From: Oscillospiraceae bacterium
Lineage (GTDB): Bacteria; Bacillota; Clostridia; Oscillospirales; CAG-272
DNA: 64,000 bases
Assembly: GCA_015064855.1 (NCBI GenBank)
Contig: SVRK01000001.1
Coordinates: 14,196 to 78,195 of the forward strand
Reading direction: 5' to 3'
Shown: piece after piece, positions 27,922-44,894 of the stretch
Numbering within the stretch: position 1 is the first letter of the stretch
Layout: every line of letters starts with the position of its first letter
Position numbers and translations under genes: made by a program
Notes under the pieces: model-generated
Database searches by the model: none
The model's input: only the letters and a program-made list of their open reading frames with translations
Told to the model about the DNA's origin: nothing

Positions 27922-27932
27922 CACTCAACTCG

Positions 27933-27965
27933 AGGCATCGGTGAAATATCCGGTGCCTTTTTTTG
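27933..27965 (+). terminator. Intrinsic terminator ending the second long operon
   Basis: AGGCATCGG pairs with CCGGTGCCT, followed by TTTTTTT. Confidence 0.7.
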
Positions 27966-27974
27966 AAATTGATA

Positions 27975-28187
27975 TTGACACATTCTGGAAACAAGTGTAT
28001 AATATAAGAGTCAACAACGCTAAAAAGATGATCTCTTGACCAGCAACGTTAGTGTCTTCCGCAACATCGAGCATCGGTGATAAAAGTCAGGATAATCTAA
28101 AGTTTCAGCGGTCGTAAAAACTTTTCGTAGCGTTTGGATGATACAATAATTAAACGCAGTGATCAGAAAAGACCACTGCGTTTTGTT
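27975..28187 (+). ncRNA. Candidate roughly 180-nt non-coding transcript (promoter to terminator, no ORF)
   Basis: Promoter TTGACA (27975-27980), 17 nt, TATAAT (27998-28003). The terminator is AAACGCAGTG (28152-28161) with CACTGCGTTT (28174-28183) plus a T-rich tail. No start codon with a usable ORF lies in between. Confidence 0.35.
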
Positions 28188-28534
28188 TATGCAACATCTT
28201 GAGTAAAAAGATAAGTGAAATCAAAAAAGCAGAATAGAGAAATTTGATTGATATCTTCTTCGTCGTCTTTGAGCATCGATATGTCAGAAGAGTTGACTTC
28301 ATATTTCTCCATCATACATTCTTCAGCTACTTCAATAGCCCGTGCAATGTCCCTTAATGTTTCAAAGCATTCAGGAGGAGCATAACGATAGTCATCCCAC
28401 GAAAAATAGTCATCTCCACAACAGGGCGCCTCTTTTTCAAGCAATTCCGAGTACCTTTCTTTAAGATCATCAAGTCTCCAAATAAGTTGCTGATCAGCAG
28501 AAGGATAACTTAAGTCAATATTGTTTTCGGTCAT
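28187..28534 (-). CDS. Small acidic hypothetical protein
   Basis: GAGGAGG lies upstream. It follows the AAA+ gene by 19 nt. Confidence 0.5.
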   Translation of the reverse strand: MTENNIDLSYPSADQQLIWRLDDLKERYSELLEKEAPCCGDDYFSWDDYRYAPPECFETLRDIARAIEVAEECMMEKYEVNSSDISMLKDDEEDINQISLFCFFDFTYLFTQDVA

Positions 28535-28553
28535 TAGCCAGCCTCCTCATAAA

Positions 28554-30560: not shown

Positions 30561-30642
30561 TTTGATAAACCTCCTTTGGATTTCTTGAGTTAATTATAAC
30601 AAAAGGAATGTTCCAAAAGTGGTGCATAACACTTTTTGTGTA

Positions 30643-30673
30643 CTAAAAAAGGAACCGCTTTTTACGGTTCCTT
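30643..30673 (-). terminator. Intrinsic terminator after the WYL gene
   Basis: AAGGAACCG (30649-30657) pairs with CGGTTCCTT (30665-30673), with a T-run on the minus strand. Confidence 0.65.
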
Positions 30674-30680
30674 GGAAATT

Positions 30681-31667
30681 TTAGTTGTATTTAACAAGCC
30701 CTTGCGTTAGAGCTTCTTTTATTCTATCTCGTAAATGCTTCGGCGCAGTTATTTCCACATGGTTCAAGTATTGCATTGCCCAGTGTTCCATTGCATTTGG
30801 ACTTGCGAAGATAGATACCTTAATTTTACCATCCATATCGGGGATTTTCGATAATGTAACACTCTTCCCGAACCAGTCGAATATCTGATCAATGATCGCT
30901 TCCTCTGCAACAAACTCGATTCGCTCTGGTTTATCAGTATACATATATGGCATCGTTGTAGCAATTTGCTTATAATCTATACCGTTTTCGTATCCTGGAA
31001 CAGATGTCAACGGCGTTAGCGGCTTGTCATAAACCTTTATCTTTGTGATACGATCAACTCTATGAAATACAATGTGTTTCCAATAATCACTGTAACCCAT
31101 AATATAATAGCGTTGGTTATGCAGAATAAGGTGGTAGGGACTCAGACGTTGAAAGGATGATTTTTGAAGCTTTCCATCAACATCGAATTTGTTGTACTCA
31201 TATTGAATTTGCTTTCCGTCTTCAATTGCAGCGTCAATGATTTCTATGTTATAGAATAACGAGGAGTTTTCGCTTTTGCTCCAATCGTTGACAGAATACA
31301 CATTACGTATATGCGAGCGAAAATACTTGTTAGAGAGTCCAGACAGTTTCTCTATTAAGTCAGCAGAATGCTTTGCAGTAATATATTTGCTCTGCAAAAC
31401 TCCATCGATAAGTAACTTAAGCTCTGAGTCTTCAAAATCTCTTGCGCTTATATAAGTACCTGCTCGGCGTGATTCAATATCACATCCCGCCTCTTTTAAC
31501 AAGGAGAGATTTCGGCTTATAGCCTTGCGCTCGATGATAATTCCATAATCATTTTTAAGGTGTTCTGCAATGTCATCTTGTGTTAAAGGGTGATCATAGT
31601 CACTGTATTTATGGAGTATTTGCCATATTCTGATGAGGGCTAATTTTTTTGGTTCAAAGCTTTCCAT
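30681..31667 (-). CDS. WYL-domain transcriptional regulator (HTH-WYL-WCX architecture)
   Basis: The HTH is LALIRIWQILHKYSDYDHPLTQDDIAEHL. The WYL region is LSPYHLILHNQRYYIMGY...FHRVDRITKIKV. Confidence 0.8.
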   Translation of the reverse strand: MESFEPKKLALIRIWQILHKYSDYDHPLTQDDIAEHLKNDYGIIIERKAISRNLSLLKEAGCDIESRRAGTYISARDFEDSELKLLIDGVLQSKYITAKHSADLIEKLSGLSNKYFRSHIRNVYSVNDWSKSENSSLFYNIEIIDAAIEDGKQIQYEYNKFDVDGKLQKSSFQRLSPYHLILHNQRYYIMGYSDYWKHIVFHRVDRITKIKVYDKPLTPLTSVPGYENGIDYKQIATTMPYMYTDKPERIEFVAEEAIIDQIFDWFGKSVTLSKIPDMDGKIKVSIFASPNAMEHWAMQYLNHVEITAPKHLRDRIKEALTQGLVKYN

Positions 31668-31679
31668 GAAAAGCCTCCT

Positions 31680-32660
31680 TTATGAATAGTAACGTTTCAA
31701 GTATTCTTGGTGATCCACTGGAATATCAAGGGATTCAGCTAATTCCTTTGCAGACATATAAATGATTTTGATGCCTGCATTACAGTTATTATCAAAAATT
31801 GCGGGAATTTCACACCGATGCATAGTATCTATAAAGAGTTGAGCTTCGTAGCGTTCTTCCGAAAGTGCGCTTTGATACTCCCATCGCGTATCCTCATCAT
31901 CTATAAATGCTGCCGGGAACTCATTTACAACATTGGTCAAGATGTACCAGTCATACTTTCCAGCCATAGTTCTTCCAGGATCTACTTTTTCTAAAGCAGA
32001 TCTTGTGACAAACGAGGCGTAGTTGTACATTGCAAGCGTGTGCTTAAACATTTGCGATGCATCATATCTACGGAAGGATACATCTTGAAGTAGGTGAGCC
32101 CAATTTGAGAACATCTCAAATGCATCTTTTGGAAAAGGAACTGCGGCTCTGTCAGGAGTGAAGTAGTATCGTTCCATAAAGTAACTCTTGCCAAGAGCTT
32201 TTGGTGATTCGAGCCATTCAAGGTTTTTCATTTCAAAAAACAAAGCGTTTCTATTAACACTATCGCTTAAAAACGCATCTACGTTTGCCGGCATATTTCC
32301 ATAGGCACGAGTGAGGAGTTGTTTCTCATATTCAACCGTGTATGTTCCTTGAGGGAGAATGCCTTCGGGCAAGATGCTTACCGAGTCATTCCCAAAAAGA
32401 TTAAACGTCATTGCCGATGAAGAAACTATGCTTCCCATTTTAGGCGGAAGTGTATAGGTCCTGCCAAATTTAGTTATGGTGCTTTCCTTTGTTTCACTAC
32501 CGTCTCCACGATTGTATTCTGCGATGGTTTGGGAAGACATCGGGCAAAATAAATTATTTCTATAGTCCTTGTAATAAAACGGACGGTGAGAATTCTGCAA
32601 ACTTGTCGGTATTGGATGCCTTTGCAAAATTGATTGCGTAATTTTCTCTCTAAGTGACAT
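31680..32660 (-). CDS. Putative PD-(D/E)XK-fold nuclease
   Basis: The internal ATG at 32660 follows AAGGAG. Motifs are SSSAMTFNLFG and NVDAFLSDSVNRNALFFEMKNLEW (D...ExK spacing). It is coupled to the WYL gene by a 12-nt gap containing an SD. Confidence 0.5.
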   Translation of the reverse strand: MSLREKITQSILQRHPIPTSLQNSHRPFYYKDYRNNLFCPMSSQTIAEYNRGDGSETKESTITKFGRTYTLPPKMGSIVSSSAMTFNLFGNDSVSILPEGILPQGTYTVEYEKQLLTRAYGNMPANVDAFLSDSVNRNALFFEMKNLEWLESPKALGKSYFMERYYFTPDRAAVPFPKDAFEMFSNWAHLLQDVSFRRYDASQMFKHTLAMYNYASFVTRSALEKVDPGRTMAGKYDWYILTNVVNEFPAAFIDDEDTRWEYQSALSEERYEAQLFIDTMHRCEIPAIFDNNCNAGIKIIYMSAKELAESLDIPVDHQEYLKRYYS

Positions 32661-32675
32661 AACAATCTCCTTATT

Positions 32676-32757
32676 CTTGTATTTGTGTTTATTATAATAC
32701 AAGTAATGGGACTTATTTGGTACATTACATTGTAACACAAAAAAGGAGTTTTGACAA
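32676..32757 (-). promoter_or_regulatory. Promoter plus 8-bp inverted-repeat operator candidate for the nuclease/WYL operon
   Basis: On the minus strand: TTGTCA (complement of 32752-32757), 17 nt, TGtTACAAT (-10 is the complement of 32729-32734). The inverted repeat CTTGTATT (32676-32683) / AATACAAG (32696-32703) lies between the promoter and the SD. Confidence 0.55.
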
Positions 32758-32762
32758 GGTAT

Positions 32763-32807
32763 AACACAAAAAAGAAAGCGCAGCGATTACATTTCGCCGC
32801 GCTTTCT
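32763..32807 (-). terminator. Intrinsic terminator overlapping the 3-prime end of the upstream CDS
   Basis: AGAAAGCGC (32773-32781) pairs with GCGCTTTCT (32799-32807), with a T-run on the minus strand. Confidence 0.6.
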
Positions 32808-33224
32808 TCTTTCTTCGAGCTCTCCTAAGTACTTTTCTTCAAGCTCATCTGTCCAAACCTTTATTTGGGAGAAGAGTGTTTTTCTTTGATCATCCATATT
32901 ATCAAAAAAATACTCAACTGATACGCCCTTGTATCCGAATATTGCTAAAATTCTGTAATCATACTCTTCAAGTGTTTCTTCGAGAAAAGCGTGGTATCCC
33001 ATTTCATTATGTGATGCTGGATCATAGTCTGAAAAACCGGAGAATCCATCTATTGCTTCTTCAAAATACATTTCAGGTGTCATATTGAATTTTTCAATAT
33101 TTTCAATTAGCTTACAGTGAAGCCCCGCATCATCCTTAGCTTCTACACAAGCCATCATTTCGCCACGCGGATTCAGATAAAACCAAGTAAATATTGATGT
33201 GTACATTTTGTTATCCTCAATCAT
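32787..33224 (-). CDS. Hypothetical acidic protein
   Basis: It has its own extended -10 promoter (minus strand TTGAAA, 17 nt, TGgTATAAT, around 33232-33262). I recognised no motif. Confidence 0.5.
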   Translation of the reverse strand: MIEDNKMYTSIFTWFYLNPRGEMMACVEAKDDAGLHCKLIENIEKFNMTPEMYFEEAIDGFSGFSDYDPASHNEMGYHAFLEETLEEYDYRILAIFGYKGVSVEYFFDNMDDQRKTLFSQIKVWTDELEEKYLGELEERRKRGEM

Positions 33225-33267
33225 CTTCGTTCTTGTTTAGTATTATACCATATATTTCTTATCTTTT

Positions 33268-33299
33268 CAACAACAAAACGGCGATCCATGACCGCCGTT
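33268..33299 (-). terminator. Intrinsic terminator after the XRE gene
   Basis: AACGGCG (33277-33283) pairs with CGCCGTT (33293-33299), with a T-rich tail on the minus strand. Confidence 0.55.
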
Positions 33300-33304
33300 C
33301 AAAA

Positions 33305-33631
33305 TTATTTTCTATCAAATTCAATCATCGCACCAACAACTTTGTAAATCCTGTCGCGTGATGCAGGATCTAACTTTGCTATTTCCTCAGTGAGAGTGGA
33401 TGATTTGATATCATAGCCAGTAGTTAACACATCTGCGAGAAGCTGGTCTGCAGAAACTTCAAGCACGTTTGCAATCTGAATAAAGGTTTCAAGTTTAGGA
33501 ACCTTTTCGCCTCTTTCTATCATACCGGTATAGGTGACACTCAAACCAATTTTCTCAGCAAAGTCCTCCTGTCTCCAGCCTTTATGCTCGCGGAATTTGC
33601 GTATGCGCTTTCCAATTGATGAAGTATTCAT
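33305..33631 (-). CDS. XRE-family HTH transcriptional regulator
   Basis: IGKRIRKFREHKGWRQEDFAEKIGLSVTYTGMIERGEKVP. Confidence 0.8.
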   Translation of the reverse strand: MNTSSIGKRIRKFREHKGWRQEDFAEKIGLSVTYTGMIERGEKVPKLETFIQIANVLEVSADQLLADVLTTGYDIKSSTLTEEIAKLDPASRDRIYKVVGAMIEFDRK

Positions 33632-33818
33632 ATCACACCTCGTAAAAATAATGGTTATTGTCCTTAACTAATAGTATAGATTATTCCGAACGATCAATAC
33701 AGAATATATTTGGATAATACCATAACTAATGGTTGATATTTGGTGCATTTTATGATATACTGACAATTGATAAGAAATGTGGTATAATAAAAACAATCAT
33801 ACAATAGGAGGATTTAAC

Positions 33819-34352
33819 ATGGGAACAGTAGCATTCACAGGTTATAGGCCAAACAAGTTACCGTTTGTTGAAGATAAGAAGGATGAGTTGTACGTTGCGT
33901 TTCGTCAAAAGCTAAGACAAGTAATAGAACGACTTGTCGAGCGAGGATACAATGAGTTTGTTTCTGGCGTTGCTATGGGGTTTGATACTTGGGTGGCAGA
34001 AGATGTTATTGCCATCAAAAAGACGAATCCTGATATCAGACTCGAATGCGCTATACCTTGTCCCAATCAAGATAAGAATTGGCCCTTGGGAGATAAACTG
34101 CGCCGTAAGAAGATACTTCATCATGCTGATAGCAAGCCAGTTATTTGCGAGCATTACAGCGATCAATGTTTCCACATTCGAAACAGATATATGGTAGACA
34201 AAGCAGAAGTCGTTGTTTGTTGCTATGATGGGCAGAAAGGCGGAACGGCATACACGGTAAACTATGCGCTTAGGGCAGATAAGATAGTTATTCAGATCAA
34301 CCCGAATAATGCTTCTGTAACCATTATCAGCAGAAGAAATTTCGAAAATTAA
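33819..34352 (+). CDS. YpsA/YoqJ-like SLOG-family protein (DUF1273)
   Basis: The ATG at 33819 follows AGGAGG. Motifs VAFTGYRPNKLPF and FVSGVAMGFDTWVAEDVI. There are tandem extended -10 promoters at 33733-33761 and 33760-33788. Confidence 0.65.
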   Translation: MGTVAFTGYRPNKLPFVEDKKDELYVAFRQKLRQVIERLVERGYNEFVSGVAMGFDTWVAEDVIAIKKTNPDIRLECAIPCPNQDKNWPLGDKLRRKKILHHADSKPVICEHYSDQCFHIRNRYMVDKAEVVVCCYDGQKGGTAYTVNYALRADKIVIQINPNNASVTIISRRNFEN

Positions 34353-34369
34353 AAAAATCTTATCAATAA

Positions 34370-34410
34370 CAATAATTATTATTGACAAGCGAGGAAAAAT
34401 ATGTTATAAT
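34370..34410 (+). promoter_or_regulatory. Fur/PerR-type 7-1-7 box overlapping the promoter of the Fur-family gene
   Basis: CAATAAT-T-ATTATTG (34370-34384) is a perfect palindrome, and its central 11 nt equal the PerR-box core ATAATTATTAT. It overlaps TTGACA (34382-34387), which is followed by 17 nt and TGtTATAAT (34402-34410). Confidence 0.6.
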
Positions 34411-34443
34411 ACCGGAGTGCGATAACCACAGGGGAGGTTAAAA

Positions 34444-34839
34444 ATGACTACTGTAACCAGAAAAACACGTCACTCCGAAACAAGAGACAGGATATACGAA
34501 TATATGTGTTCGACCAAGGCGCACCCATCCGCAGAGACTATATATGCTGCTTTGAAGCCGGGCATTCCCAAGCTATCTCTCGCAACCGTTTATGTCAACC
34601 TTAAGCTCTTGAAGGAACAAGGAAAGATAATTCGTGTAGCGAATGTAGATGGAAACGAGCGATATGATGCTAATTGTGAGGATCACGTACACTTTGTATG
34701 TGATACTTGTGGCTCTGTCATCGACCTTATGGATTCGGATATCCAAGCTATCAAAAATTTTTGTAACATAGGCAAACTTAAAATCAACAGCGTCCAAGTC
34801 GTGCTGCACGGTGTGTGCGAAGGCTGCACTGTGAAATAA
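34444..34839 (+). CDS. Fur-family metalloregulator (Fur/PerR/Zur type)
   Basis: The winged-helix region is HPSAETIYAALK...ATVYVNLKLL. There are two CxxC pairs, HFVCDTCGSVIDL and LHGVCEGC. Confidence 0.8.
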   Translation: MTTVTRKTRHSETRDRIYEYMCSTKAHPSAETIYAALKPGIPKLSLATVYVNLKLLKEQGKIIRVANVDGNERYDANCEDHVHFVCDTCGSVIDLMDSDIQAIKNFCNIGKLKINSVQVVLHGVCEGCTVK

Positions 34840-34870
34840 TCAAAGGAGAACAGTTTCAACTCGCTATTTT

Positions 34871-35578
34871 ATGATCAATAATATTCTTATTGTTAACCAC
34901 AACATTGAAGAGGCAAAAAGTATTAAAAGCAGACTGGCTTCTTCAAACACAAACGCAGTCTGCGCTTATACTATTGAAGAAGCACTTGATGCCTTCAGTA
35001 GGATGAATTTTTGCTTAGTTGTTTTAGATGCTGCCATGTCCGCATCTGATGACCATAATATCTTGAAGGCTATGAGAGAAGCAAAGACAATGCCTATTCT
35101 GCTTCTTTCTTCTCATGCTGATCCAAATGAACGTGTACATGCATTTAATGCAGGAGCTCATGCATATATGGGAAGACCATATACTGACGAAGAGTGCCTT
35201 GCACAGGCGCATACACTTATGAGATTATATCAAGATATGAATCCGCAAAGTGAACTGTGTTACACCCTTGCGTTTGGCAAGGATCTTATTATTGATCCAG
35301 ACACTCGACAGGTTACGCTTCAAGGCGCGGAGCTGAAACTTACACGCAAAGAATACGATCTGCTTTTTTGGCTCGCAAGTAATCCAGGAAAGGTATATAG
35401 TTGCAGTCAATTATACGATCATGTTTGGGATGAATTTGCTATCGGCAATGTTGACGAGGTTGTAAAATACCATATAAAATCTTTGCGTCGGAAGCTCACA
35501 ACCACAAATGCGGAATACATTAAAAACGTTTGGGGCATCGGATACCGCTTTGCACAAACTGCGGAGCTTCGCGGCTGA
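34871..35578 (+). CDS. Atypical OmpR-family response regulator (degenerate receiver pocket), no kinase nearby
   Basis: The receiver reads ILIVNHN instead of the acidic DD pair. The phospho-site Asp is kept (VVLDAAM). The conserved Lys position reads GRPY. The winged-helix output has LTRKEYDLLFWLASNPGKVY and VWGIGYRF. Confidence 0.75.
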   Translation: MINNILIVNHNIEEAKSIKSRLASSNTNAVCAYTIEEALDAFSRMNFCLVVLDAAMSASDDHNILKAMREAKTMPILLLSSHADPNERVHAFNAGAHAYMGRPYTDEECLAQAHTLMRLYQDMNPQSELCYTLAFGKDLIIDPDTRQVTLQGAELKLTRKEYDLLFWLASNPGKVYSCSQLYDHVWDEFAIGNVDEVVKYHIKSLRRKLTTTNAEYIKNVWGIGYRFAQTAELRG

Positions 35579-35593
35579 TCAGATAATAATCAA

Positions 35594-35624
35594 CGGCAAG
35601 GAGTCACCCTTGCCGCATTTTTTT
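35594..35624 (+). terminator. Intrinsic terminator
   Basis: CGGCAAGG pairs with CCTTGCCG, followed by a T-run. Confidence 0.7.
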
Positions 35625-35673
35625 GCAAATATAAGATGTTTGAGGAGGTTGTTAATAGTTAGTTCATCAAAAA

Positions 35674-35728
35674 CTCCCGAAGTTCTCCCGATTTCCACCC
35701 CTATTTCCTCCCTTTTTTATGTTATAAT
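35674..35728 (+). promoter_or_regulatory. Four helically phased CTCCC direct repeats abutting a promoter with no -35 element
   Basis: CTCCC occurs at 35674, 35685 and 35708, and CACCCC at 35696 (spacing 11, 11, 12). TGtTATAAT is at 35720-35728. No TTGACA-like hexamer sits at the -35 position. Confidence 0.5.
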
Positions 35729-35805
35729 CTCATCACAAAAGAAAAAAGATATGAACAGAAGGCCAGACGCATGACGCCGAGCCAGCTCATATCACGAGGT
35801 GAAAA

Positions 35806-35988
35806 ATGGATAATTGTAATAAGCCCAACGATGAATCTCTTTGGCTTCGATGCCCGCATTGTGGCGCAAAAACCAGAACTAAGGTATATGCGGATACCGT
35901 ACTCGTTAAATTTCCGTTGTTTTGCTACGAGTGCAAAAAAGAAACCAAGATAGATGTTATTCAACTAAAAATGGTCTTGAGCAAATGA
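35806..35988 (+). CDS. Cysteine-rich KTR-domain protein
   Basis: WLRCPHCGAKTRTKVYADTVLVKFPLFCYECKKETKIDV. This family is typical of Tn916-like elements. Confidence 0.75.
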   Translation: MDNCNKPNDESLWLRCPHCGAKTRTKVYADTVLVKFPLFCYECKKETKIDVIQLKMVLSK

Positions 35989-36008
35989 GCCAGACGCTAT
36001 AAGCGCAG

Positions 36009-36047
36009 AGCCAGCTTTCCCATTCAATGGAGAAGCTGGCTTTTCTT
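36009..36047 (+). terminator. Intrinsic terminator
   Basis: AGCCAGCTT (36009-36017) pairs with AAGCTGGCT (36033-36041), followed by a T-rich tail. Confidence 0.6.
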
Positions 36048-36397
36048 TACCCAATCGATATAGCGTTTTTATCGCGAAGAGCATTTAGAACCGACTCCAG
36101 AACTGGAATAATAGTTGCTGCTTCCTCCTCGCTACACTCTTCAATTAAAATGCGGAGTTGATTCAATGAGGGCGTGTCTCTATGTACTTCCGGATAGAAA
36201 ATCTCAGTAGGATCAATTTTCAGAGTTCTGACAAGCGAATAGAGCACTTCGAGTTTAGGATTTCCTTTGTTGTTTTCGATATTCAAGACGGTTCGGTTAT
36301 CTATCCCCGCTTTTTCAGCAACCTGAGCTTGAGTTAAAGTAGTTTTTGACCGGGCAGCCCTCACAGCTTCCCCAAGATATTCAGAGTATTCTGGCAT
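36047..36397 (-). CDS. XRE-family HTH regulator (Tn916 orf9-like position)
   Basis: LTQAQVAEKAGIDNRTVLNIENNKGNPKLEVL. It is divergent from the sigma-like genes. Confidence 0.8.
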   Translation of the reverse strand: MPEYSEYLGEAVRAARSKTTLTQAQVAEKAGIDNRTVLNIENNKGNPKLEVLYSLVRTLKIDPTEIFYPEVHRDTPSLNQLRILIEECSEEEAATIIPVLESVLNALRDKNAISIG

Positions 36398-36618
36398 TAC
36401 AATTCACCCCCTATATATTTTACAATACACCTCGCAAAATTGGAATGAATTGCATTCCGCCTCTTTTGTGTATCAGAGTACATATAACTATGAAAGGGAT
36501 TGCATTTTATGACTAAAACCATTGAAAAACGTACTAATTTACAATCGAAAATGAATTTCATTGGTTCGTATGGGGGAACTATGCCCAGTTAAGTGTATTG
36601 CAATTCACCTCGCATTTT
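36397..36618. promoter_or_regulatory. Repeated TTRCAATWCACC motifs in the divergent regulatory region
   Basis: TTACAATTCACC at 36397-36408, TTACAATACACCTCGCA at 36420-36436 and TTGCAATTCACCTCGCA at 36598-36614. A partial copy, TTACAATCG, is at 36539-36547. Confidence 0.5.
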
Positions 36619-36631
36619 AACATAATATTCT

Positions 36632-36670
36632 GCGCCTATTTGCGTTCGCACGCGAATGGGCGCTTTTCTT
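36632..36670 (+). terminator. Strong leader hairpin with U-tract upstream of the sigma-like genes
   Basis: A 13-bp stem, GCGCCTATTTGCG (36632-36644) with CGCGAATGGGCGC (36651-36663), is followed by TTTTCTT. Confidence 0.55.
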
Positions 36671-36781
36671 ATTATACCACAAGAATATTACGATTCTGTT
36701 GCTCTGCTCGTGGTCCGCCGTTTCGGTTTTGAATTTCAACGACAACAAACAAATTCAAAATCACGATTCGGAGGATAAAAC

Positions 36782-37165
36782 ATGAATAACGAAAAAACCA
36801 GAGCTGAATTTACCAACTGGCTCGACACCCTTGCTTACAGAACGAAGCTGAACTACATAAGAGCAGAAAAGAAGCATCAAGTCAGCTTTTCCATTGATGA
36901 ATTGCCCGAGGACAGACTAGAGTCCGAGGAATTCCACGTTGCCTTTGAGTTTTCTGTTGAAGGCGAATTTAACTTCGAAGCCGAGTGGCTTGAGAAGGCG
37001 TTTGCAAAGCTTTCGGATACCTGCAAAGAGATCCTCAAGCTTATGTACATCGAAGGCAAAACAACCCAGGAAGTCGCCGTGCAAATGAAGTGTAGCGCGA
37101 AATATGTGTACAAGCAGCGGGCTAAGGCGTTTGATCTTATAAGAAAAGAAGGAGAAAAGAAATGA
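36782..37165 (+). CDS. Sigma-70 region-4-like protein (Tn916 orf7-like)
   Basis: LSDTCKEILKLMYIEGKTTQEVAVQMKCSAKYVYKQRAKAFDLIRKE. Confidence 0.7.
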   Translation: MNNEKTRAEFTNWLDTLAYRTKLNYIRAEKKHQVSFSIDELPEDRLESEEFHVAFEFSVEGEFNFEAEWLEKAFAKLSDTCKEILKLMYIEGKTTQEVAVQMKCSAKYVYKQRAKAFDLIRKEGEKK

Positions 37166-37362
37166 AAAAGGAATGCTTGAATTTCGAAGAGCTTATTATT
37201 GCCGCACAGAACGGCAGCGACGAGGCAATGACTGAGATCCTGGAGATGTATATGCCTCTGATCGACAAGCATAGCCGAATTGACGGTGTTTTGGACGAGG
37301 ATCTTCGCCAGATCATTTTGATGAAGATTATCAAAAATATCGGAAAATTTAAGGTTAAATAA
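37162..37362 (+). CDS. Sigma-70 region-2-like small protein (Tn916 orf8-like)
   Basis: ELIIAAQNGSDEAMTEILEMYMPLIDKHS. It has an ATGA overlap with the upstream gene. Confidence 0.65.
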   Translation: MKKECLNFEELIIAAQNGSDEAMTEILEMYMPLIDKHSRIDGVLDEDLRQIILMKIIKNIGKFKVK

Positions 37363-37380
37363 TTTTTTCAAAAAAATCGT

Positions 37381-37762
37381 GGGGATGGTAGAATTTTCGA
37401 TAACCTGCTGTGTGATTACATGTGAAGGCATCCCCAAAGCCTAACAAATTACAATTGAATAGTCTGATCCGGTACGTTCCGAAGCGCCGAGCGGCTATCC
37501 GTCTGTCGGCAACAGAACCAAGAGCACTGATGTGTGGGTGGCACCTGCACAACGCGATGACGCGCTGAGGGTATAATGGTACTTCCGTAAAAACGCGGCC
37601 CGGCCACAAGGAAGGCGGGGAGATGAGATTTCTATGGACCTGTTCGCCACAGGCACCGGGGAGGACGTTAAACTTAGGAAATCGATTTATGCTGTCATAG
37701 GTCGATAAGTTATCGAATAAATATTTGGTAACAGGTTAAAAATATAATCACACAGCAGGAGG
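37381..37762 (+). other. ORF-free structured segment bracketed by a perfect 15-nt inverted repeat (candidate large RNA leader or invertible DNA switch)
   Basis: CCTGCTGTGTGATTA (37404-37418) is the exact reverse complement of TAATCACACAGCAGG (37745-37759). The right arm overlaps the SD AGGAGG (37757-37762). A local helix is GGGGATG (37381-37387) with CATCCCC (37429-37435). The segment is more GC-rich than its flanks. Confidence 0.4.
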
Positions 37763-37768
37763 TTGTAT

Positions 37769-38023
37769 ATGGAAAAGAATACAATCATTACCGACGTGCG
37801 AAGTATAGATAGGACAAAGTTGCGCGACATAAACAGCGTGGTGATTGATCCCAAGCTCCCGAAGGCAGAGAAAATTCAGAGCTTCGTAAGTCAAATCGGC
37901 AATCCATACTGCTATATGGATGGCGATGTGGTAGTCAGCATTAGCTATGCAGATACCGAAGTCAGTCTGGAGGACAGACTGAAGTCCTATTTCACTGGAA
38001 TGGGAAATAATACTAACGGTTAA
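37769..38023 (+). CDS. Small hypothetical protein preceding the recombinases (DUF6870-like from memory; unverified)
   Basis: The ATG at 37769 lies 6 nt after AGGAGG. The listed 37763 start is a TTG. Confidence 0.5.
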   Translation: MEKNTIITDVRSIDRTKLRDINSVVIDPKLPKAEKIQSFVSQIGNPYCYMDGDVVVSISYADTEVSLEDRLKSYFTGMGNNTNG

Positions 38024-38046
38024 ATGTGAATTTTCAGGATTTTGCA

Positions 38047-38075
38047 TTGACTATTCAAGTCAAATGTGATATAAT
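38047..38075 (+). promoter_or_regulatory. Near-consensus sigma-A-type promoter for the recombinase operon
   Basis: TTGACT (38047-38052), 17 nt, TGaTATAAT (38067-38075). Confidence 0.6.
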
Positions 38076-38163
38076 GAATGCGTCAATGATCGTCGGTCTG
38101 GTCAACCGACATCGAGCAAAGCACTGTAACATTTTACCGTGATTTCAATCAGGAGGAAATGTT

Positions 38164-39795
38164 ATGCATCAAGTGCCTTGCAACGTCACATACCGTGCCT
38201 TAGCATATTACCGCTTGTCAAAGGAAGACAAAGGCAAGACGGTTAGTGACAGTATAGAAAACCAGCGGATGCTTATTCAGGAATACGTGAGCAAGCACGA
38301 TGAGATCGAGCTGGTTGGTGAATTTTACGATGACGGTTATTCCGGAACCAACTATAGACGTCCCGGATTCCAGGATCTTCTTGAGAAAGTCGAACAAGGA
38401 GAGATAGATTGTATCATCGTAAAGGATCTCTCGCGCCTTGGGCGTGAATATATTGAGACCGGAAGGTTCATTGAAGAACGCTTTCCGGCTATGGGAATTC
38501 GATTCATTGCTGTAACGGACGATTACGACAGTAACGCACCCAAGCAGTCTGATGATATCTTGATTCCTGTAAAAAACTTAATGAATGAAACCTATTGCCG
38601 TGATTTGTCCAACAAACTGCGTCGTCAGTTTATGGTACAAAGAAGCAATGGTGAGTGCCTTGCAGCCTTCGCAAGCTACGGATATCGTAAATCACCGGAA
38701 GATAAGCATAAGCTTATTATCGATGAGATTGCGGCCGAAGTTGTGCGGGGCATTTTTTATTCCAAATTACAAGGTTACAGCCAACAGGATATTGCTTCAA
38801 TGCTTACCTCTCAGGGCATTATGTGTCCCGCAGAATACAAGAAGCAAAACGGCATGAAATACAAGTCTGGCTTTAGTTCGACCGAAACCGGGCAATGGAG
38901 CCACATGGCTGTTACGAGAATCCTCAAAAACCGTCTTTACATTGGTGAGCTCATACAAGGCGTAAGAGGCAAGCCGAATTTTAAGGTAAAAGAGGTCAAA
39001 AAGCGTAAGCCAGAAGAATGGATTGTAGTTCCAAATAATCACGAGCCGATCATAGATCAAAAAGTCTTTGATATAGTACAAAGAATGCTTGAACGTGATA
39101 CGAGACGTTCGCCCGAGCAGGAGCTTGTTTTTCCTCTATCTGGAATGATTTTCTGCCCGGATTGCGGCAGAAATATTCGCATTCGCAGCGTTACAAGATA
39201 TAAGAGAAAATTCTACTATTATACCTGCTCAACTTATAAAAACGGCAGAGGTTGTACGAGCCACAGTATAGAAAAGTCAAAGCTCGAGGATATCGTATAT
39301 CGAGCAATAATGGTTCAAATCAATACAGTTGTTGACATCAATTCCATTTTGGATACGATTAAGAACTGCGACTTGCGTGTAGTTCGTATGAAAAAGCTGA
39401 AGGCTCAAATATCGCAGAAGGAAGCCGAACTGGAAAAATACAAGGAGTTCAAAAACAGACTTCTGGAGGCACTCAAAGATCAGCTCATCGAACGCGATGA
39501 ATATATTCAGATGCGTGACAAATACAGGGCGCAGGAAGAAGAGTGCCTTGAAGCAATCAAGGTGCTTCAGGATAAGGCTATTGAGCTTGAGTCTGAGGCG
39601 AATTTGGATAGCTCTTGGGTGGAGCAATATGCAAAGTTCCAGAACGTCCAAACGCTCACTCGTGAAATGGTTGTGTCTTTGATTGACAAAGTTATTGTAC
39701 ACGAAGGCAACGTCATAGAAATAGTCTTCAATTACAGAGACGAAATTGCCTATGTCGAAGAGCTTATCTCCGAAAGCAAAAAGGAGGTGAGCTAA
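38164..39795 (+). CDS. Large serine recombinase 1
   Basis: Motifs ALAYYRLSKEDKGK, FYDDGYSGTNYRRPGF and IIVKDLSRLGREY. It has a zinc-ribbon CPDCGRNIRIRS...YYTCSTYKNGRGC and a C-terminal coiled coil. Confidence 0.9.
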   Translation: MHQVPCNVTYRALAYYRLSKEDKGKTVSDSIENQRMLIQEYVSKHDEIELVGEFYDDGYSGTNYRRPGFQDLLEKVEQGEIDCIIVKDLSRLGREYIETGRFIEERFPAMGIRFIAVTDDYDSNAPKQSDDILIPVKNLMNETYCRDLSNKLRRQFMVQRSNGECLAAFASYGYRKSPEDKHKLIIDEIAAEVVRGIFYSKLQGYSQQDIASMLTSQGIMCPAEYKKQNGMKYKSGFSSTETGQWSHMAVTRILKNRLYIGELIQGVRGKPNFKVKEVKKRKPEEWIVVPNNHEPIIDQKVFDIVQRMLERDTRRSPEQELVFPLSGMIFCPDCGRNIRIRSVTRYKRKFYYYTCSTYKNGRGCTSHSIEKSKLEDIVYRAIMVQINTVVDINSILDTIKNCDLRVVRMKKLKAQISQKEAELEKYKEFKNRLLEALKDQLIERDEYIQMRDKYRAQEEECLEAIKVLQDKAIELESEANLDSSWVEQYAKFQNVQTLTREMVVSLIDKVIVHEGNVIEIVFNYRDEIAYVEELISESKKEVS

Positions 39796-41507
39796 TGGCA
39801 CGTAAAAGTAGGTTTGTAGATGTAAGCACTATTGAAGCCATTGAAACAGTGGTTTGGAAAACGGCATTTTATTTGCGTTTGTCAGATGAAGATGGCGAAA
39901 ACGTAGAACAAAACTCTTTGGGCAACCAACGCAAAATCTGTCAGGCTTACTTCAATAAGCTTGAAGACGTTGAGCTTGTCAGAGTATTCAGCGACAACGG
40001 TTATACCGGAATGAATTATGATCGTCCCGACTTCAACGCACTTTACGATGCAGTGATGAATGGTGAGATCAACTGTATTATCGTCAAGGATGTGTCTCGC
40101 TTTGGAAGGCACTATATAATGACCAGTGAATTCTTGCAAAGACTCTTTCCGAGTATGGGAGTTCGGTTTATTTCCGTAAATGACGATTATGACAGCCTTA
40201 ATCCTAAATCGGATGTGGAAGGTCTCTTACTGCCTTTCAAGATGATCGTAAACGATTCCTACGTTAAGGATATTGCCAAAAAGATACGTTCGAGCATTAC
40301 TTCAAAAATGAATGCCGGAGAGTATTTGCCATCAGCAAGTAGCATTCTGTACGGATACATTCGTAATCCTGAAATGAATACACTTGATATTGATGCAGAA
40401 GCGGCTCCGGTTGTTGTTCGGATATTTGAAATGAGAGCTGATGGCATCTCTTTCAACCAAATTGCAGATACTCTTAACAAAGAAGGAGTTCCATCCCCAG
40501 GAAGACTTCGTTATATGCGGGGAGTAACTCTCCATCCGAGATACGCAACTTGTCAGTGGTCGCGCTCGACGATCAGAAAATTCGTATCAGAGCCAACGTA
40601 CCTTGGCCAAAGAATTCACGGAAAAATCAAGAGAGATAAGCTGGGTGCCAAGAAGACAAAGCGTGATAGGTCGGAATGGCAGATTGTTGAGAATAGCCAT
40701 CCTGCAATCATTTCGCAGGAACTGTATGATAGAGTTCAGTTCGTTAACGAAGCCGAGCTTGAAAAACAGTCTCACTATTTCAGAAGAGCTCCGGTCACAG
40801 GTTATCGTGAAATTTTCCGCGATAAGCTATTCTGCGGGGATTGCGGATCAAGAATGATCTCTATCCGTTTTAATCACAGAATCAGTGACAATAAGCCATC
40901 TGAGATAAGGTACCAATGCAATGAGTTCCTTTACTCTGGTAGAACAAGATGCTTTAATCACTACACGAGAGAAGACGTTCTTGTTATGACGGTAAAGAAC
41001 GTTATTAACGGTCAGATTAAGGTAGCCGCGAGAATACAAACGGCACTTACGGCTTACAAAAAATCGAAGCGTGGCAATCCGATTGCAGATCAATTACAGG
41101 CAGTAAGATTGCGGCGCAAACAGCTTGAGGTTAAAATCGAAAGGTTAATCGAGGATCTAACTGAGGGCATTATCAACCACGAGGAGTATGAATATGCTAA
41201 AAGAAAATACGCTGACGAATACGATCTCGTTTTGATTGAGGAACAAGAAATCGAAAAACGCTTTAAGTCACAGCAGGAATCAGTTGACAGAGCTGAATTA
41301 TGGGTTGAATCCCTGAAAGCTTATAGTATGGTTCCAAAGCTTGACAAAGCAATCGTCGATCTGCTCATTGAAAAAATCATAGTGTTTCCGGATAATACTT
41401 TTCATATTGTCTTGAACTTTAAGGATCCTTACAAAGATTTTGCGTTCCTCTCAGACTATTTGAAGACAGGAGGAAGATCTAATGGCAGATCTAAAAAGGC
41501 GATTTGA
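39795..41507 (+). CDS. Large serine recombinase 2
   Basis: Motifs AFYLRLSDEDGEN, FSDNGYTGMNYDRPDF, IIVKDVSRFGRHY and CGDCGSRMISIR...YQCNEFLYSGRTRC. The ATG overlaps the previous TAA. Confidence 0.9.
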   Translation: MARKSRFVDVSTIEAIETVVWKTAFYLRLSDEDGENVEQNSLGNQRKICQAYFNKLEDVELVRVFSDNGYTGMNYDRPDFNALYDAVMNGEINCIIVKDVSRFGRHYIMTSEFLQRLFPSMGVRFISVNDDYDSLNPKSDVEGLLLPFKMIVNDSYVKDIAKKIRSSITSKMNAGEYLPSASSILYGYIRNPEMNTLDIDAEAAPVVVRIFEMRADGISFNQIADTLNKEGVPSPGRLRYMRGVTLHPRYATCQWSRSTIRKFVSEPTYLGQRIHGKIKRDKLGAKKTKRDRSEWQIVENSHPAIISQELYDRVQFVNEAELEKQSHYFRRAPVTGYREIFRDKLFCGDCGSRMISIRFNHRISDNKPSEIRYQCNEFLYSGRTRCFNHYTREDVLVMTVKNVINGQIKVAARIQTALTAYKKSKRGNPIADQLQAVRLRRKQLEVKIERLIEDLTEGIINHEEYEYAKRKYADEYDLVLIEEQEIEKRFKSQQESVDRAELWVESLKAYSMVPKLDKAIVDLLIEKIIVFPDNTFHIVLNFKDPYKDFAFLSDYLKTGGRSNGRSKKAI

Positions 41508-43074
41508 TTATTTAAGACTATCTTTGGAAGACGGAGATGTGGCAAGCGGCAACTCAAACGAGAGCCAGAGCATTGAGTCCCAAAGAAAATGTTGTCGTCA
41601 GTTTCGTGCAGAGTATCCAGACTTAATGGATGGCTTTGAAGAAATTGTTGATGACGGTTACTCCGGTACACACTTTGATAGGCCGGGAATAAAACGGCTC
41701 CTCAGACTTGTGGAGTTGGATATGGTGGAAGTTATTGTTGTTAGGGATCTTTCTCGTTTTGCAAGAAACTTCCTTGAGGCTGGATACTATATGGAGTTTG
41801 TGTTTCCCGCCCATGGAGTTCGTTTCATATCTATTAACGATGGATATGACAGCGCTTCGTATACTGATTCCAGCGCTGCGCTTCATATTGCGATCAAGAA
41901 CCTCGTCAATCAGATGTATAGCCGCGATATTTCGAAAAAGATCAAGAGTGCGGTCGATCTGAAAAAAATGAGAGGCGAATTTGTATATGGCACGGCCCCA
42001 TACGGATATAAAAAAGGCGCAAAGAAGAACACCATCGAGGTGGATCCAATTGCTGCCCCAACAGTATTCAGACTATTCAGTATGGCTTGTAACGGCAAGA
42101 CCATTACGGAAATTGCGAGAACTTTTAACGAGGAGAAGATTCCAACACCATCTATGCACCTTTCTGCAGTACGAAGCAAGAAGGTAAAGGTTTATCCAAT
42201 ATGGAGCTTCGAATCCGTTAGAAACATTCTGACAAATCGTATCTATACTGGAGATACTGTTCCGTTTAAGTCACACGTTGTACGTATCGGCAGTGACAAT
42301 GTGAAGTATATTCCCGAGGAAGAAAGGATTATCATACCCAATACCCACGAGGCAATTATCACTCGAGAGATGTACGAAAAAGCACAGCTTGTGATTAAGA
42401 GCACAAAGAAATCTCCGTCCAGTGGCATAAGAAGTCCATTGGCCACTTACCTTGTATGCAGTTGTTGCGGCAATCGTCTACAAAAAGGTAAACCAACAAA
42501 CAAAACATTCCTGTGTGCTACAGCGCGTTATGCTCCAGATAAAGAGTGTAAGCAGATTCGATGTGATGACCGTAAGATGCAGGAAATACTGCTCAAGGCA
42601 GTCCGCCAACAGTGTATGATGATGGATACTCGCATCAAGCATATCAAGGCTACAGCAAAAACTGTCAGAAGTGAAATTGAGATGCTGATGGCCGATATTC
42701 GTCTACAGCGTAGACTTGCGGAAAATGCTAAAGCTTCTAAGATGCGACTCTACGAGGATTATGTTGAGGGAGTAATAAACAAAGAAGAATACTCCACAAA
42801 GAAAGTAGAGCTTGCAGAGCAGGAACAGACTGCACTCAAGCAGCTTGAGCTCTTAGAAGCAAACCTTGCCGTGCTCAATTCTAATGTTGACGACAAAGAC
42901 GAGGTGGTAGAGAGTCAAGCCTTGATCGATAAGTATCTTGAGATCACCGAACTTACAGAGCCGTTAATGAGAGAACTCTTCAAAAAAATAATTGTTTATC
43001 CGGACGGCTCCATAAATATCGTTTGGAATTTCAGGGATATGACGGATGGCTCAAAAACAACCACTGTAATCTAA
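41482..43074 (+). CDS. Large serine recombinase 3
   Basis: Motifs FDYLRLSLEDGDV, IVDDGYSGTHFDRPGI, IVVRDLSRFARNF and CSCCGNRLQKG...FLCATARYAPDKEC. It overlaps recombinase 2 by 26 nt. Confidence 0.9.
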   Translation: MADLKRRFDYLRLSLEDGDVASGNSNESQSIESQRKCCRQFRAEYPDLMDGFEEIVDDGYSGTHFDRPGIKRLLRLVELDMVEVIVVRDLSRFARNFLEAGYYMEFVFPAHGVRFISINDGYDSASYTDSSAALHIAIKNLVNQMYSRDISKKIKSAVDLKKMRGEFVYGTAPYGYKKGAKKNTIEVDPIAAPTVFRLFSMACNGKTITEIARTFNEEKIPTPSMHLSAVRSKKVKVYPIWSFESVRNILTNRIYTGDTVPFKSHVVRIGSDNVKYIPEEERIIIPNTHEAIITREMYEKAQLVIKSTKKSPSSGIRSPLATYLVCSCCGNRLQKGKPTNKTFLCATARYAPDKECKQIRCDDRKMQEILLKAVRQQCMMMDTRIKHIKATAKTVRSEIEMLMADIRLQRRLAENAKASKMRLYEDYVEGVINKEEYSTKKVELAEQEQTALKQLELLEANLAVLNSNVDDKDEVVESQALIDKYLEITELTEPLMRELFKKIIVYPDGSINIVWNFRDMTDGSKTTTVI

Positions 43075-43081
43075 AAAGAAA

Positions 43082-43122
43082 ACCCCCGTTTTCGAACTGC
43101 CTTCAAGTTCGAGAACGGGGGT
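43082..43122 (+). terminator. Long hairpin terminator after the recombinase operon
   Basis: ACCCCCGTTTTCGAACT (43082-43098) pairs with AGTTCGAGAACGGGGGT (43106-43122) with one wobble pair. The U-tract is weak. Confidence 0.6.
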
Positions 43123-43319
43123 ATTTCATTAACACTGAAGTCACAAAGTTGTGTTAAAATTAGTTATCACATCCCTCCAGTTGATTTGGCTCTCAAGTAA
43201 CGCGATCCTGCGCAAGATGCGAAATGGAGAAGCCGAATTTTGTGTGTCGGTACCAGGACACATTTGCTTTCGATTAGATGGTCAATGAAAATCGAGCAAA
43301 TACACCGTAACACCTCGTT

Positions 43320-44303
43320 TTATTCGAGTTTTACTGTGTTGTCCCTATTATAACACACTCCCATTCCTTGCACAATTCCACCTGATTTATTTATAAGCTC
43401 AGTGTCAGTGACTTTTATTTTAAAATTTTTTGCACTACTGTTAGATATATCTATACTTGAAATTTGCACCTTGTATTTTTTTGGTGTTCTGCCGTCAAGT
43501 GTCGATAGAATATATGCATCTCCCTCTTTTATGTCCTCTTTAGATGCTACCTTTAGTAGCTCGCAGGATTGAGGGATAGAATTTGCCGAAAGATATCCAA
43601 AAACACCACAAGTGCAGTTTTTAGTTAATGTGCCGATTTTTTTTGATAAAAACGTTCCACGAAGCTCACCAGCTGAACCAACCTCACCTTTTATAACACC
43701 GTTGATATTTACATTCATAACAAGACCTTTTCCAACAGGAATTACTTTACCATTACTCGAATCACAAATTGCGTGTCCAAGACCACCAAACGAGAGGTCT
43801 TTTGGATTGATATAGGTTATAGTTCCTATGCCTGTTGTAGAATCCTTAACCCAAATACCGGTTTTATATTTTCCGTCCTCACTTGAATATTTCGGTTTTA
43901 CAGTGAATTTGATTTCTTTATTATTTCTAATTGCGATTATTTCTATAGGGTTTGCACCGGACTTATCAACCTCTTTAATAAAGGTATCTATTGAATTTAC
44001 TAAAACTCCGTTGATTCTTATAATTATGTCTCCCTCACGAAGTCCCGCCAGATATGCACTTGACACATTGTTTCCTCTAGTAGAAGAAAATTTTACTATT
44101 GTTAAGCCCGGAGAGGAAATTTTCACTCCGAACGGCATGCCTCCTGGGTATAATTCAATTTCAGAAATATCTTTATTTTCATTTGCATAAGAGGTTATAC
44201 TAAATAACGGTACAAAAAACAAAATAGCAATAAACGCAAAGGAAATTAATGATATATTTAATCTTGATTTTTGCATTTTTCTTGTCCTTTCATTTTTGTA
44301 CAT
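43320..44303 (-). pseudogene. spoIVB: spoIVB (S55 signalling protease), 5-prime two-thirds only, interrupted by the element
   Basis: It has a membrane anchor, a PDZ-like region GDIIIRINGVLVNSIDTFIKEV and a His region SFGGLGHAICD. It ends ...NKSGGIVQGM and then 13 unrelated codons, where the family has GM-SGSP with the catalytic Ser. The start is uncertain (ATG at 44303 or 44276; the listed 44342 is TTG). Confidence 0.8.
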
Positions 44304-44447
44304 ACTTAATTTGTGTAATCTTTTTGATATTATGTCTAACAAAATTAGAGGTGTGTGATAAAAAAATGCAAAATCGAAAAAAATAGGTTGAAATTTTTAA
44401 AAAAAATGATATAATCATTAGTAAACTAACAATTTTCGAGGTGTAAA

Positions 44448-44894
44448 ATGAAAAACGAAAACAAAGCTCTTGAAAATGGAGTAGTATCTCCTCTTGCGCT
44501 TATTAGGTGGGTAAGCAGCGAATATGAAGAATTGATTACCAAGGAAACAGAGGGACATAAAATTCTAAATCAAAAGGCTGTGCGTTCTGTTTTGAAAATT
44601 TTGACAATAAATAATGGTATTTCGCAAAATGAGTTGGCAAGAGAAGTTCATTTGCAGGGTTCAACTATTAGTGTTGCGCTTGTAAAAATGGAAGAAGAAG
44701 GACTTATAAGACGTGAAGCATCATCAAATGATAAAAGAAAAGTTAACGTTTATATGACGTCCTCCGGATACGAAATGATTAAAACGCTTGATAAAGTAAT
44801 TGACAAAATGGAAGAAAAAATGCTAGACGGCTTAACTGATAGTGAAAAATATGATTTACATTATTACTTAACTAAAATTTTAAAAAATTGCTAA
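44448..44894 (+). CDS. MarR-family transcriptional regulator
   Basis: ISQNELAREVHLQGSTISVALVKMEEEGLIRREASSNDKRKVNVYMT. Confidence 0.8.
   Translation: MKNENKALENGVVSPLALIRWVSSEYEELITKETEGHKILNQKAVRSVLKILTINNGISQNELAREVHLQGSTISVALVKMEEEGLIRREASSNDKRKVNVYMTSSGYEMIKTLDKVIDKMEEKMLDGLTDSEKYDLHYYLTKILKNC

Follow-up and report, generated by a model that had tools for sequence, protein, structure and literature searches.

This study examined a 64,000-nucleotide stretch of a metagenome assembly from an Oscillospiraceae bacterium (contig SVRK01000001.1, positions 14,196 to 78,195; hereafter the window), in which the sporulation protease gene spoIVB is interrupted at the edge of a large mobile element. 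The explanation judged likely is that an integrative conjugative element (ICE) of at least 80 kb was integrated by a large serine recombinase at a TG dinucleotide immediately before the catalytic serine codon of spoIVB, splitting the gene reversibly. The alignments show the predicted gene to be divided into a 305-codon 5' piece, which continues into 13 element codons and lacks the nucleophile, and a 47-codon 3' piece at the far end of the element. They also show that, as read from the assembled contigs, filled and empty sites coexist in one strain background.

The minus-strand open reading frame (ORF) at 43320-44342 had been described in an earlier note on this DNA as a spoIVB gene cut just before its catalytic-serine motif, and it was present as described, with a probable true start at the ATG at 44276 (M23, MQKSRLN...) that agrees with all homologues. 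Its assignment to the S55 peptidases with a PDZ region held as well: Pfam Peptidase_S55 matched ORF residues 158-327 over profile positions 2-175 of 210, the PDZ matches were weak, and NCBIfam TIGR02860 (spore_IV_B, SpoIVB peptidase) matched over profile positions 80-361 of 402 with 242 bits against a cut-off of 305, a shortfall expected because the member is truncated. The spoIVB 5' segment (43362..44276, minus strand) covers codons 1-305, which encode the signal/anchor, PDZ and S55 histidine regions according to Pfam and NCBIfam, and it ends ...NKSGGIVQGM with the ATG at 43364-43362. The element-derived tail (43320..43361, minus strand) then fuses 13 codons (GVCYNRDNTVKLE) and a stop onto the truncated protein. 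In S55 peptidases the catalytic serine lies in a GMSGSP motif (B. subtilis SpoIVB). A SpoIVB peptidase combines a PDZ domain with an S55 domain that carries this serine and the histidine, and the window ORF fails at the serine; SpoIVB should therefore be inactive while the element is integrated. Unlike the window ORF, six close homologues run on past GGIVQGM in the alignment. No SGSP-type continuation in a SpoIVB context was found anywhere in the window, nor was a spoIVB 3' fragment; the left end of the element lies outside. A second S55 homologue was found neither in the window nor in the readable parts of the element. The break coincides with the switch from AT-rich host DNA that the note had reported, G+C content rising there from 0.30-0.33 in the host to 0.41-0.49 in the element, and the stop of the third recombinase (43074), placed about 290 bp from the break in that note, lies 287 nt from the junction. 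Judged by its predicted product, the window spoIVB is a split member of its family and is not functional as it stands.

The window is 100% identical to a JGI metagenome contig (Ga0216340_10000059, 307,672 bp; L003) over the 20,957 nt compared, the truncated SpoIVB counted from M23 (318 aa) is encoded on four contigs from different samples, and the junction is also crossed by one Logan contig and one further JGI contig. The junction is therefore not an assembly artefact, since it is found on independent contigs from several samples.

An empty version of the same site was recovered through the 90%-identity cluster of the window SpoIVB, which includes members of 352 aa. One of these, P0258, is encoded on an ENA contig of 219,938 bp (L050) and on a JGI contig (L051), both of which match window 54276-43362 at 100.000% identity (10,915 nt, 0 mismatches; 305/305 aa). 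The homology ends exactly at 43362, beyond which both contigs read on AGCGGCAGTCCA / AGCGGCAGTCCAATT... through the intact C-terminus of the 352-aa protein. Because the flanks are identical and the gene is intact, the same strain occurs with an uninterrupted spoIVB, as expected from the earlier suggestion that element-free DNA should carry the full gene. A test for decay (frameshifts, stops, excess substitutions) was negative, the 305 and 47 codons of the two pieces being identical to the intact allele. The nearby host sporulation genes (the spoIIIA operon, spoIIGA at 53560-54354 and sigE at 54368-55075) are full-length, in line with the earlier description of them as intact. The letter-perfect state of both spoIVB fragments, together with these intact genes, argues against a decaying sporulation pathway.

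The missing part of the gene was located by searching protein collections with the 47-residue C-terminus, which returned about 3,000 short proteins. The best of these, P0266 (48 aa, VSGSPIIQ...SKAS), is 100% identical and is encoded on contigs L052 and L053, where the missing 47 codons stand in frame behind the left arm of the element, just where the earlier note had proposed looking for them. Positions 10002-10324 of L052 equal 10914-11236 of L050 at 323/323 nt; L052 therefore carries the 3' flank of the same strain. The foreign DNA upstream of the 3' segment on L052 ends ...CTGTTGTCCCTACTTGAACACACTCG-TG-AGCGGC. Followed from attR, the match with the intact gene stops at L050 position 10915; followed from attL, it starts at 10914, leaving an overlap of 2 nt, TG. 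This dinucleotide (43362..43363, minus strand; CA on the plus strand) forms the last two bases of the methionine codon before the catalytic serine; an overlap of this kind is the signature of a serine-recombinase crossover.

The arms that flank the core form an inverted repeat (left TTGTCCCTACTTGAACACACTC, right GAGTGTGTTATAATAGGGACAA) in which 21 of the 25 innermost positions are symmetric; the P' arm in attR (43334..43361, minus strand) reads GGAGTGTGTTATAATAGGGACAACACAG and is the inverted repeat of the P arm at attL on L052. The reconstructed attP is CTGTTGTCCCTACTTGAACACACTCG-TG-GGAGTGTGTTATAATAGGGACAAC, with dyad symmetry at 21/25 positions, and attB is GTGCAAGGAA-TG-AGCGGCAGTCC. When the DNA between both TGs was removed in silico, the exact 352-codon gene was obtained, identical to the intact allele of the same strain. 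Recombination of attL with attR at the TG is thus shown, in silico, to be an event that would remake the 352-codon spoIVB exactly, and the earlier expectation that a precise deletion should restore one ORF was borne out at the 2-nt core.

Downstream of spoIVB, an ORF beginning MNYKHFTIEE... starts about 190 nt past the stop codon, and three independent contigs end there (L050 at 11190-11250, L051, and L052 at 10290-10324), pointing to repeated DNA at this place, perhaps an insertion sequence. In a 90%-identical relative (L001), a cellulase gene follows spoIVB in place of this ORF; linkage of a cellulase gene to spoIVB was not seen in related species represented by metagenome-assembled genomes, and the metagenome and genome collections gave no useful locus. 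Contig breaks at the junction were considered as evidence of excision and rejected, given that the same element is present in at least two hosts of the same data sets and that a repeat probably lies downstream of spoIVB.

The element itself extends well beyond the window. Its right-hand part occupies 1..43361 (43.4 kb by G+C profile and gene content), and the element goes on for at least another 36 kb past window position 1. Walking left along overlapping contigs (L006, L028, L035/L036, L042/L043) followed it for at least 26 kb beyond that position, and L052 adds 10 kb at the far left that overlap none of the walked loci, bringing the total seen to at least 80 kb. The whole element probably measures about 86 kb, a figure based on a 28,526-bp contig that picks up where the contig of the window stops and on an 86,337-bp contig that holds the element methylase. 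Two ENA contigs of about 60 kb were considered as the whole element and found wrong, since L036 breaks off within a helicase gene, in cargo that is variable and restriction-modification-like, and other contigs extend further. At 5.7-8.2 kb inside attL on L052, and not on the contig of the window, an 829-aa P-loop_TraG/TraC-like (VirB4-type) ATPase is encoded together with DUF5697 and DUF6100 neighbours. Integrases with defined att ends, a VirB4-type ATPase and transfer between hosts show the element to be, on its predicted gene content, an ICE of the serine-recombinase type, with window 1-43361 as its right part. A prophage was set aside, since the roughly 80 kb seen showed neither capsid nor tail genes (no PHROGs comparison was made) and a type IV secretion system ATPase is present, although genes of a phage-like replication and recombination type (YqaJ, SSB, UmuC-like) occur despite this classification.

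The same insertion was found in other hosts. The exact protein sequence of the third recombinase is present on at least 23 contigs, and on one locus (L055) an element 99.84% identical to window 31482-43424 is joined to the spoIVB of another host, whose product is 45% identical. The junction falls at the same codon (...TGGIVQGM|GVCYNRDNTVKLE*) and carries the same 13-codon tail, and 17 further similar places were found besides L055. A near-identical element at the same codon in a host with a 45%-identical SpoIVB shows what is best read from these alignments as recent horizontal transfer with site-specific integration.

The breadth of this target use was surveyed among the best 120 of the approximately 3,000 short C-terminal SpoIVB proteins, each representing one 90%-identity cluster from public metagenomes. 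In 78 of the 120, non-SpoIVB sequence ending ...CCP[YFL]L[TNH]T[LH][VL] precedes SGSP (two of them with a mutated SGSP); this motif is the translation of the left arm, which reads KNCCPYLNTLV in the window strain. Another 12 begin V-SGSP with a GTG codon, as in the window strain, 19 begin M-SGSP and are ambiguous, and 11 are ordinary partial genes with the native GGIVQGM. Of these 120, at least 88 thus carry the translated left arm or the GTG junction codon. Since the translated left arm precedes SGSP in them, many distinct hosts carry or carried such an element at this position, and the spoIVB site is shown by these predicted proteins to be a dedicated attB of this element family. In another species, a 231-kb ENA contig (L057) holds two attL-like remnants (arm, TG and SpoIVB C-terminus) at 9990-10210 and 14800-14945, 4.6 kb apart, the first intact and the second frameshifted. 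No conjugative element adjoins them, the upstream DNA holding an ATP synthase operon and further ordinary host genes, and the 5' part of spoIVB is absent within 10 kb; these fragments may be relics of past insertions or rearrangements.

Next to the junction, three large serine recombinases are encoded on the plus strand: recombinase 1 (38164..39795, 543 aa) and recombinase 2 (39795..41507, 570 aa), both with Resolvase, Recombinase and Zn_ribbon_recom domains and respectively 29% and 31% identical to recombinase 3, and recombinase 3 itself (41482..43074, 530 aa; Resolvase, Recombinase and DUF4368), which lies nearest the junction. Identity among the three is 29-31%, and the RLS catalytic motif is preserved in each; recombinase 3 shares about 31% identity with TndX, and its best relatives of solved structure (PDB) are TnpX and SprA/YokA. 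A terminator-like hairpin with a 17-bp stem and a weak T-run after it (43082..43122, plus strand) stands behind the operon. Upstream of recombinase 1 lies a sigma-70-type promoter with an extended -10 (38047..38075, plus strand; TTGACT-17-TATAAT with TG before the -10, 11 of 12 consensus matches), and so near-consensus a predicted sigma-A-type promoter does not suggest sporulation-specific transcription of the recombinases. Nothing convincing in the way of sporulation-sigma (F/G/E/K) promoters was noticed upstream of spoIVB or of the recombinases in an inspection by eye only, a method too weak to count.

Further upstream, a regulatory module (36047..38023) comprises Pfam-recognized genes for an HTH_3 repressor-like protein (36047-36397, minus strand), a sigma-70 region-4-like protein (36782-37165), an HTH_16 protein (37162-37362) and a DUF6870 protein (37763-38023). 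Between the HTH_16 and DUF6870 genes, a full-length pemK RNA motif (Rfam RF02913; 37573-37637, plus strand) scored 64 bits against a gathering score of 34.8 and could act as a cis-regulator of read-through into the recombination genes. This right end is laid out much like the regulation-recombination end of Tn916 and Tn5397. TndX, a relative, is reported to integrate and excise without a helper protein. No recombination directionality factor was identified in the element; the DUF6870 gene (37763-38023) is one candidate, and another is a gene of the HTH_17 excisionase family some 7 kb to the left of the window. In SPbeta and skinCd it is the directionality factor, not the recombinase, that is under sporulation-sigma control.

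Combined, these observations suggest a mechanism in which the element would target spoIVB because the sequence is nearly invariant in spore-forming Clostridia and not needed in vegetative growth. In the integrated state SpoIVB would be catalytically dead, and carriers would finish the SpoIVB-dependent steps of sporulation only via a paralogue or by excision of the element. Excision would be driven by the element's own recombinases under the vegetative-type promoter and the Tn916-like regulatory module, one or more of the three would catalyse both integration and excision, and the excised circle could re-integrate into the restored site.

Several points weigh against this reading. No single contig spans the element; attL (L052, L053) and attR (the window) stem from different samples, and what joins them is the identity of their host flanks and the symmetry of their arms rather than one unbroken sequence. 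Between L042 and L052 some 6-16 kb was never seen, which makes the size an estimate. Neither a relaxase nor a coupling protein was recognized in the approximately 80 kb examined, a 1067-aa DUF87/FtsK-like protein and a RecD2-like helicase being ambiguous with respect to these roles. Exact-pattern scans found no circular attP junction in any of the retrieved loci or viral contigs; the same scans matched no element DNA in viral contigs, and L058, which holds the sole IMG/VR relative of recombinase 3 (49% identity), stops short of any junction. Additionally, the filled and empty sites could stem from one recent acquisition and not from ongoing excision, and an attL-like fragment on L057 without an element indicates that some family members are relics.

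In B. subtilis, as the earlier note had stated, and also in C. difficile, spoIVB orthologues are forespore genes under sigma-F/sigma-G (PMC3789822). The reported intervening elements sit in mother-cell genes (PMC4191935, PMC5595907, PMC10747680), where excision costs the element nothing as that genome is discarded. Expression of the target in the terminal mother cell is probably not the case here, and the mother-cell logic of skin, SPbeta, gin and yin is not directly applicable because spoIVB orthologues are forespore genes. The conflict with forespore expression raised in the earlier note thus stands, and any of the three ways out that it named may apply (departure of the element from the forespore chromosome with loss or re-integration, reliance on a paralogue, or disabled SpoIVB-dependent sigma-K checkpoint signalling). 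There remains the scenario of stochastic or ICE-regulated excision followed by re-integration, with carriers that are conditionally sporulation-defective. That this widespread ICE family of gut Clostridia acts as a reversible developmental switch, leaving the chromosome of the predivisional cell, the forespore or the mother cell (SpoIVB being supplied from that side in the last case), persisting as an episome and re-integrating, appears unlikely on the present analysis.

SpoIVB loss blocks sporulation at stage IV in B. subtilis, and a late block of this kind costs a committed sporangium its spore, so that selection for timely excision is plausible. Such selection would fit a programmed intervening element of the skin, SPbeta or gin type, in which the sporulation programme triggers excision and spoIVB is rebuilt when needed. 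The element would have to leave the predivisional or forespore chromosome, persist as an episome and re-integrate, or else be excised in the mother cell only, where SpoIVB would be made for secretion into the shared intermembrane space. The architecture is that of the known cases, with a serine recombinase at the junction in a sporulation gene and precise reconstitution, and elements in sigK (skin), spsM, spoVFB, spoVR and gerE are reported to excise in sporulation (PMC4191935, PMC5595907). Moreover, gin of B. cereus is likewise not a phage and possesses three serine recombinases, the two gene fragments are free of decay at a very widely used site, and SSB, the RecD2-type helicase and the DUF3854/Toprim-like protein could support an episomal phase. 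This account is nevertheless considered rather improbable: the recombinase operon has a near-consensus vegetative promoter with no directionality factor identified, the regulatory module resembles that of an ordinary conjugative transposon, and the active spread among distant hosts is unlike domesticated intervening elements. Forespore expression of the orthologues (PMC3789822) would in addition remove the free ride that explains all known cases, and no attP junction was seen in the retrieved loci.

The vegetative-type promoter, with no sign of sporulation control, speaks for a plain insertional knock-out, in which the gene would be a conserved landing site with no link to sporulation and carriers would be asporogenous or rely on a second S55 protease. 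Such carriers could persist since spores are seldom needed in the herbivore gut, and the empty sites would be lineages never reached by the element. Many ICEs and phages strike conserved coding sequences, decayed or relic attL-like fragments without an element occur on L057, and the two SpoIVB homologues of C. difficile make a paralogue backup possible in Clostridia. This account is held to be possible if doubtful, as the 5' and 3' segments are letter-perfect against the intact allele and the surrounding sporulation genes are intact; the translated arm is strongly conserved in 78 fragment clusters, which fits functional or recent sites better than abandoned ones, and the 0 differences in 10.9 kb between filled and empty sites fit very recent events or ongoing exchange. 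The origin of the window in a metagenome assembly and an ORF without its catalytic serine would also be explained by a decayed pseudogene in a lineage without sporulation or by a chimeric assembly. That explanation is highly improbable and effectively refuted, in view of the match to the intact allele with zero frameshifts or substitutions, the existence of the complementary left junction, the intact spoIIIA, spoIIGA and sigE genes, and the repetition of the junction on contigs of several samples and assemblers and, in the same form, in the L055 host.

The remainder of the element carries replication, recombination and defence-type genes. Its middle holds a LexA-like S24 repressor, a UmuC-like polymerase, an SSB, an AAA protein with a VWA/CobT-like protein, a small resolvase, a YqaJ exonuclease, a RecD2-type helicase and the DUF3854 (Toprim-like) protein. 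At 7067-9180 the LexA-like S24 repressor gene (minus strand) diverges from the gene for the UmuC/IMS-family polymerase, an arrangement that points to a possible DNA-damage response in part of the element. The fourth, small serine recombinase or resolvase at mid-element (19518-20348, plus strand; 276 aa, with a Resolvase N-terminal domain only) may serve in multimer resolution or as an inversion switch.

Defence-type cargo includes the 1067-aa HerA/DUF87 ATPase, whose C-terminal part occupies window 96-1886, a colicin-DNase WHH toxin with its SUKH immunity protein (1886-2822), two GmrSD-like proteins (2891-6849; PADLOC HEC-06/SspE-like) and a methylase with helicases. Left of the window (L006/L028/L035), two dynamin-like GTPases and a WYL regulator were observed. 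At 28554-32738, a three-gene block on the minus strand, opposite to its surroundings and with a lower G+C content (0.37-0.41), encodes a 668-aa AAA+ protein with AAA_lid_6 (a weak PADLOC IetA-like match), a WYL/WCX regulator and an REase-ARP nuclease, and probably represents a further defence insert. The methylase/helicase block (L035 1-3335, L036 1-2630, L042 10001-21974) is where every assembly of the element breaks; it encodes an N6_N4 methylase (657 or 701 aa), a DEAD/YagJ helicase, a HEPN_Swt1-SNF2 protein and a HATPase/SACS protein. Copies of the element that otherwise agree at >99% share only about 80% identity in this block, which on these alignments looks like a hot spot of cargo exchange. 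On the host side, the first gene past spoIVB is a divergent MarR-family regulator (44448..44894, plus strand).

If spoIVB is forespore-expressed here as in Bacillus and C. difficile, its split breaks the rule that such elements occupy mother-cell genes, and it would be the first seen in a gene thought to act in the future spore and not in the disposable mother cell. Mobile elements may have an as yet unknown way of quitting the germ-line chromosome and returning to it in the course of development; alternatively, conjugative elements of a very common class may make their hosts conditionally unable to complete sporulation. Either would affect the view of spore-borne transmission of gut Clostridia. 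Were the developmental switch true, the element would be the first of the gene-intervening kind that germ-line expression permits, and conjugative elements would be tied to spore formation and gut transmission. Usable outputs of this study are defined attB, attP, attL and attR sites with a TG core, three candidate recombinases, and a metagenomic marker peptide (...CCPxLTTLV-SGSP).

Compared with known systems, the spoIVB element shares with intervening elements the insertion within a sporulation gene (between codons 305 and 306), a recombinase near the junction, and a shared core at which the ORF was rebuilt in silico. The earlier likening to skin and SPbeta therefore stands for the recombinase next to the junction in a sporulation gene; it does not extend to their nature, as the spoIVB element is conjugative and moving between species now, not a domesticated remnant. 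A recombinase at the junction and restoration of the reading frame are common to skin in sigK (SpoIVCA), SPbeta in spsM (SprA/SprB), skinCd of C. difficile and yin in yabG of C. botulinum (PMC4191935, PMC5025042, PMC10747680), and recombinase 3 has SprA among its best matches of solved structure. In contrast to the spoIVB element, these are prophages or their remnants in mother-cell genes, excised only in the terminal mother-cell genome while the element stays in the spore. The gin element in gerE of B. cereus ATCC 10987 (PMC5595907) is likewise non-phage, splits a sporulation gene and has three large serine recombinases and short att cores. It measures 28.6 kb, lacks conjugation genes, interrupts a mother-cell gene of the sigma-K period and has demonstrated sporulation excision that needs GirC and GirX (PMC5595907), whereas the spoIVB element reaches at least 80 kb, has a type IV secretion system ATPase and a contiguous recombinase triplet, and interrupts a gene whose orthologues are forespore genes.

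Among conjugative elements, Tn5397 (TndX) and Tn4451 (TnpX) share TndX/TnpX-like recombinases, crossover at a central dinucleotide and a Tn916-like module of sigma-like and HTH_16 genes upstream, and a serine recombinase triplet at one ICE end is an arrangement described in Streptococcus. Tn5397, Tn4451 and the streptococcal ICEs differ from the spoIVB element in size, cargo and target, and none is reported in the searchable literature to target spoIVB. A full-text literature search, which most subscription-journal papers lie outside, found no description of an element in spoIVB; the one paper it returned was a preprint that, by title and abstract, deals with DNA methylation in C. difficile. 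Active lysogeny, as in the comK prophage of Listeria, provides a precedent for reversible excision in reproducing cells, in that the element leaves, the gene works and the element returns; the Listeria case is a phage with demonstrated behaviour, whereas for the spoIVB element such a cycle is hypothesis only. Overall, the closest functional analogue is gin in gerE and the closest enzyme relatives are TndX, TnpX and SprA; a recombinase-bearing element that splits a sporulation gene is thus a known arrangement, and what is new is the target gene, the implied cell type, the conjugative nature of the element and the breadth of its family.

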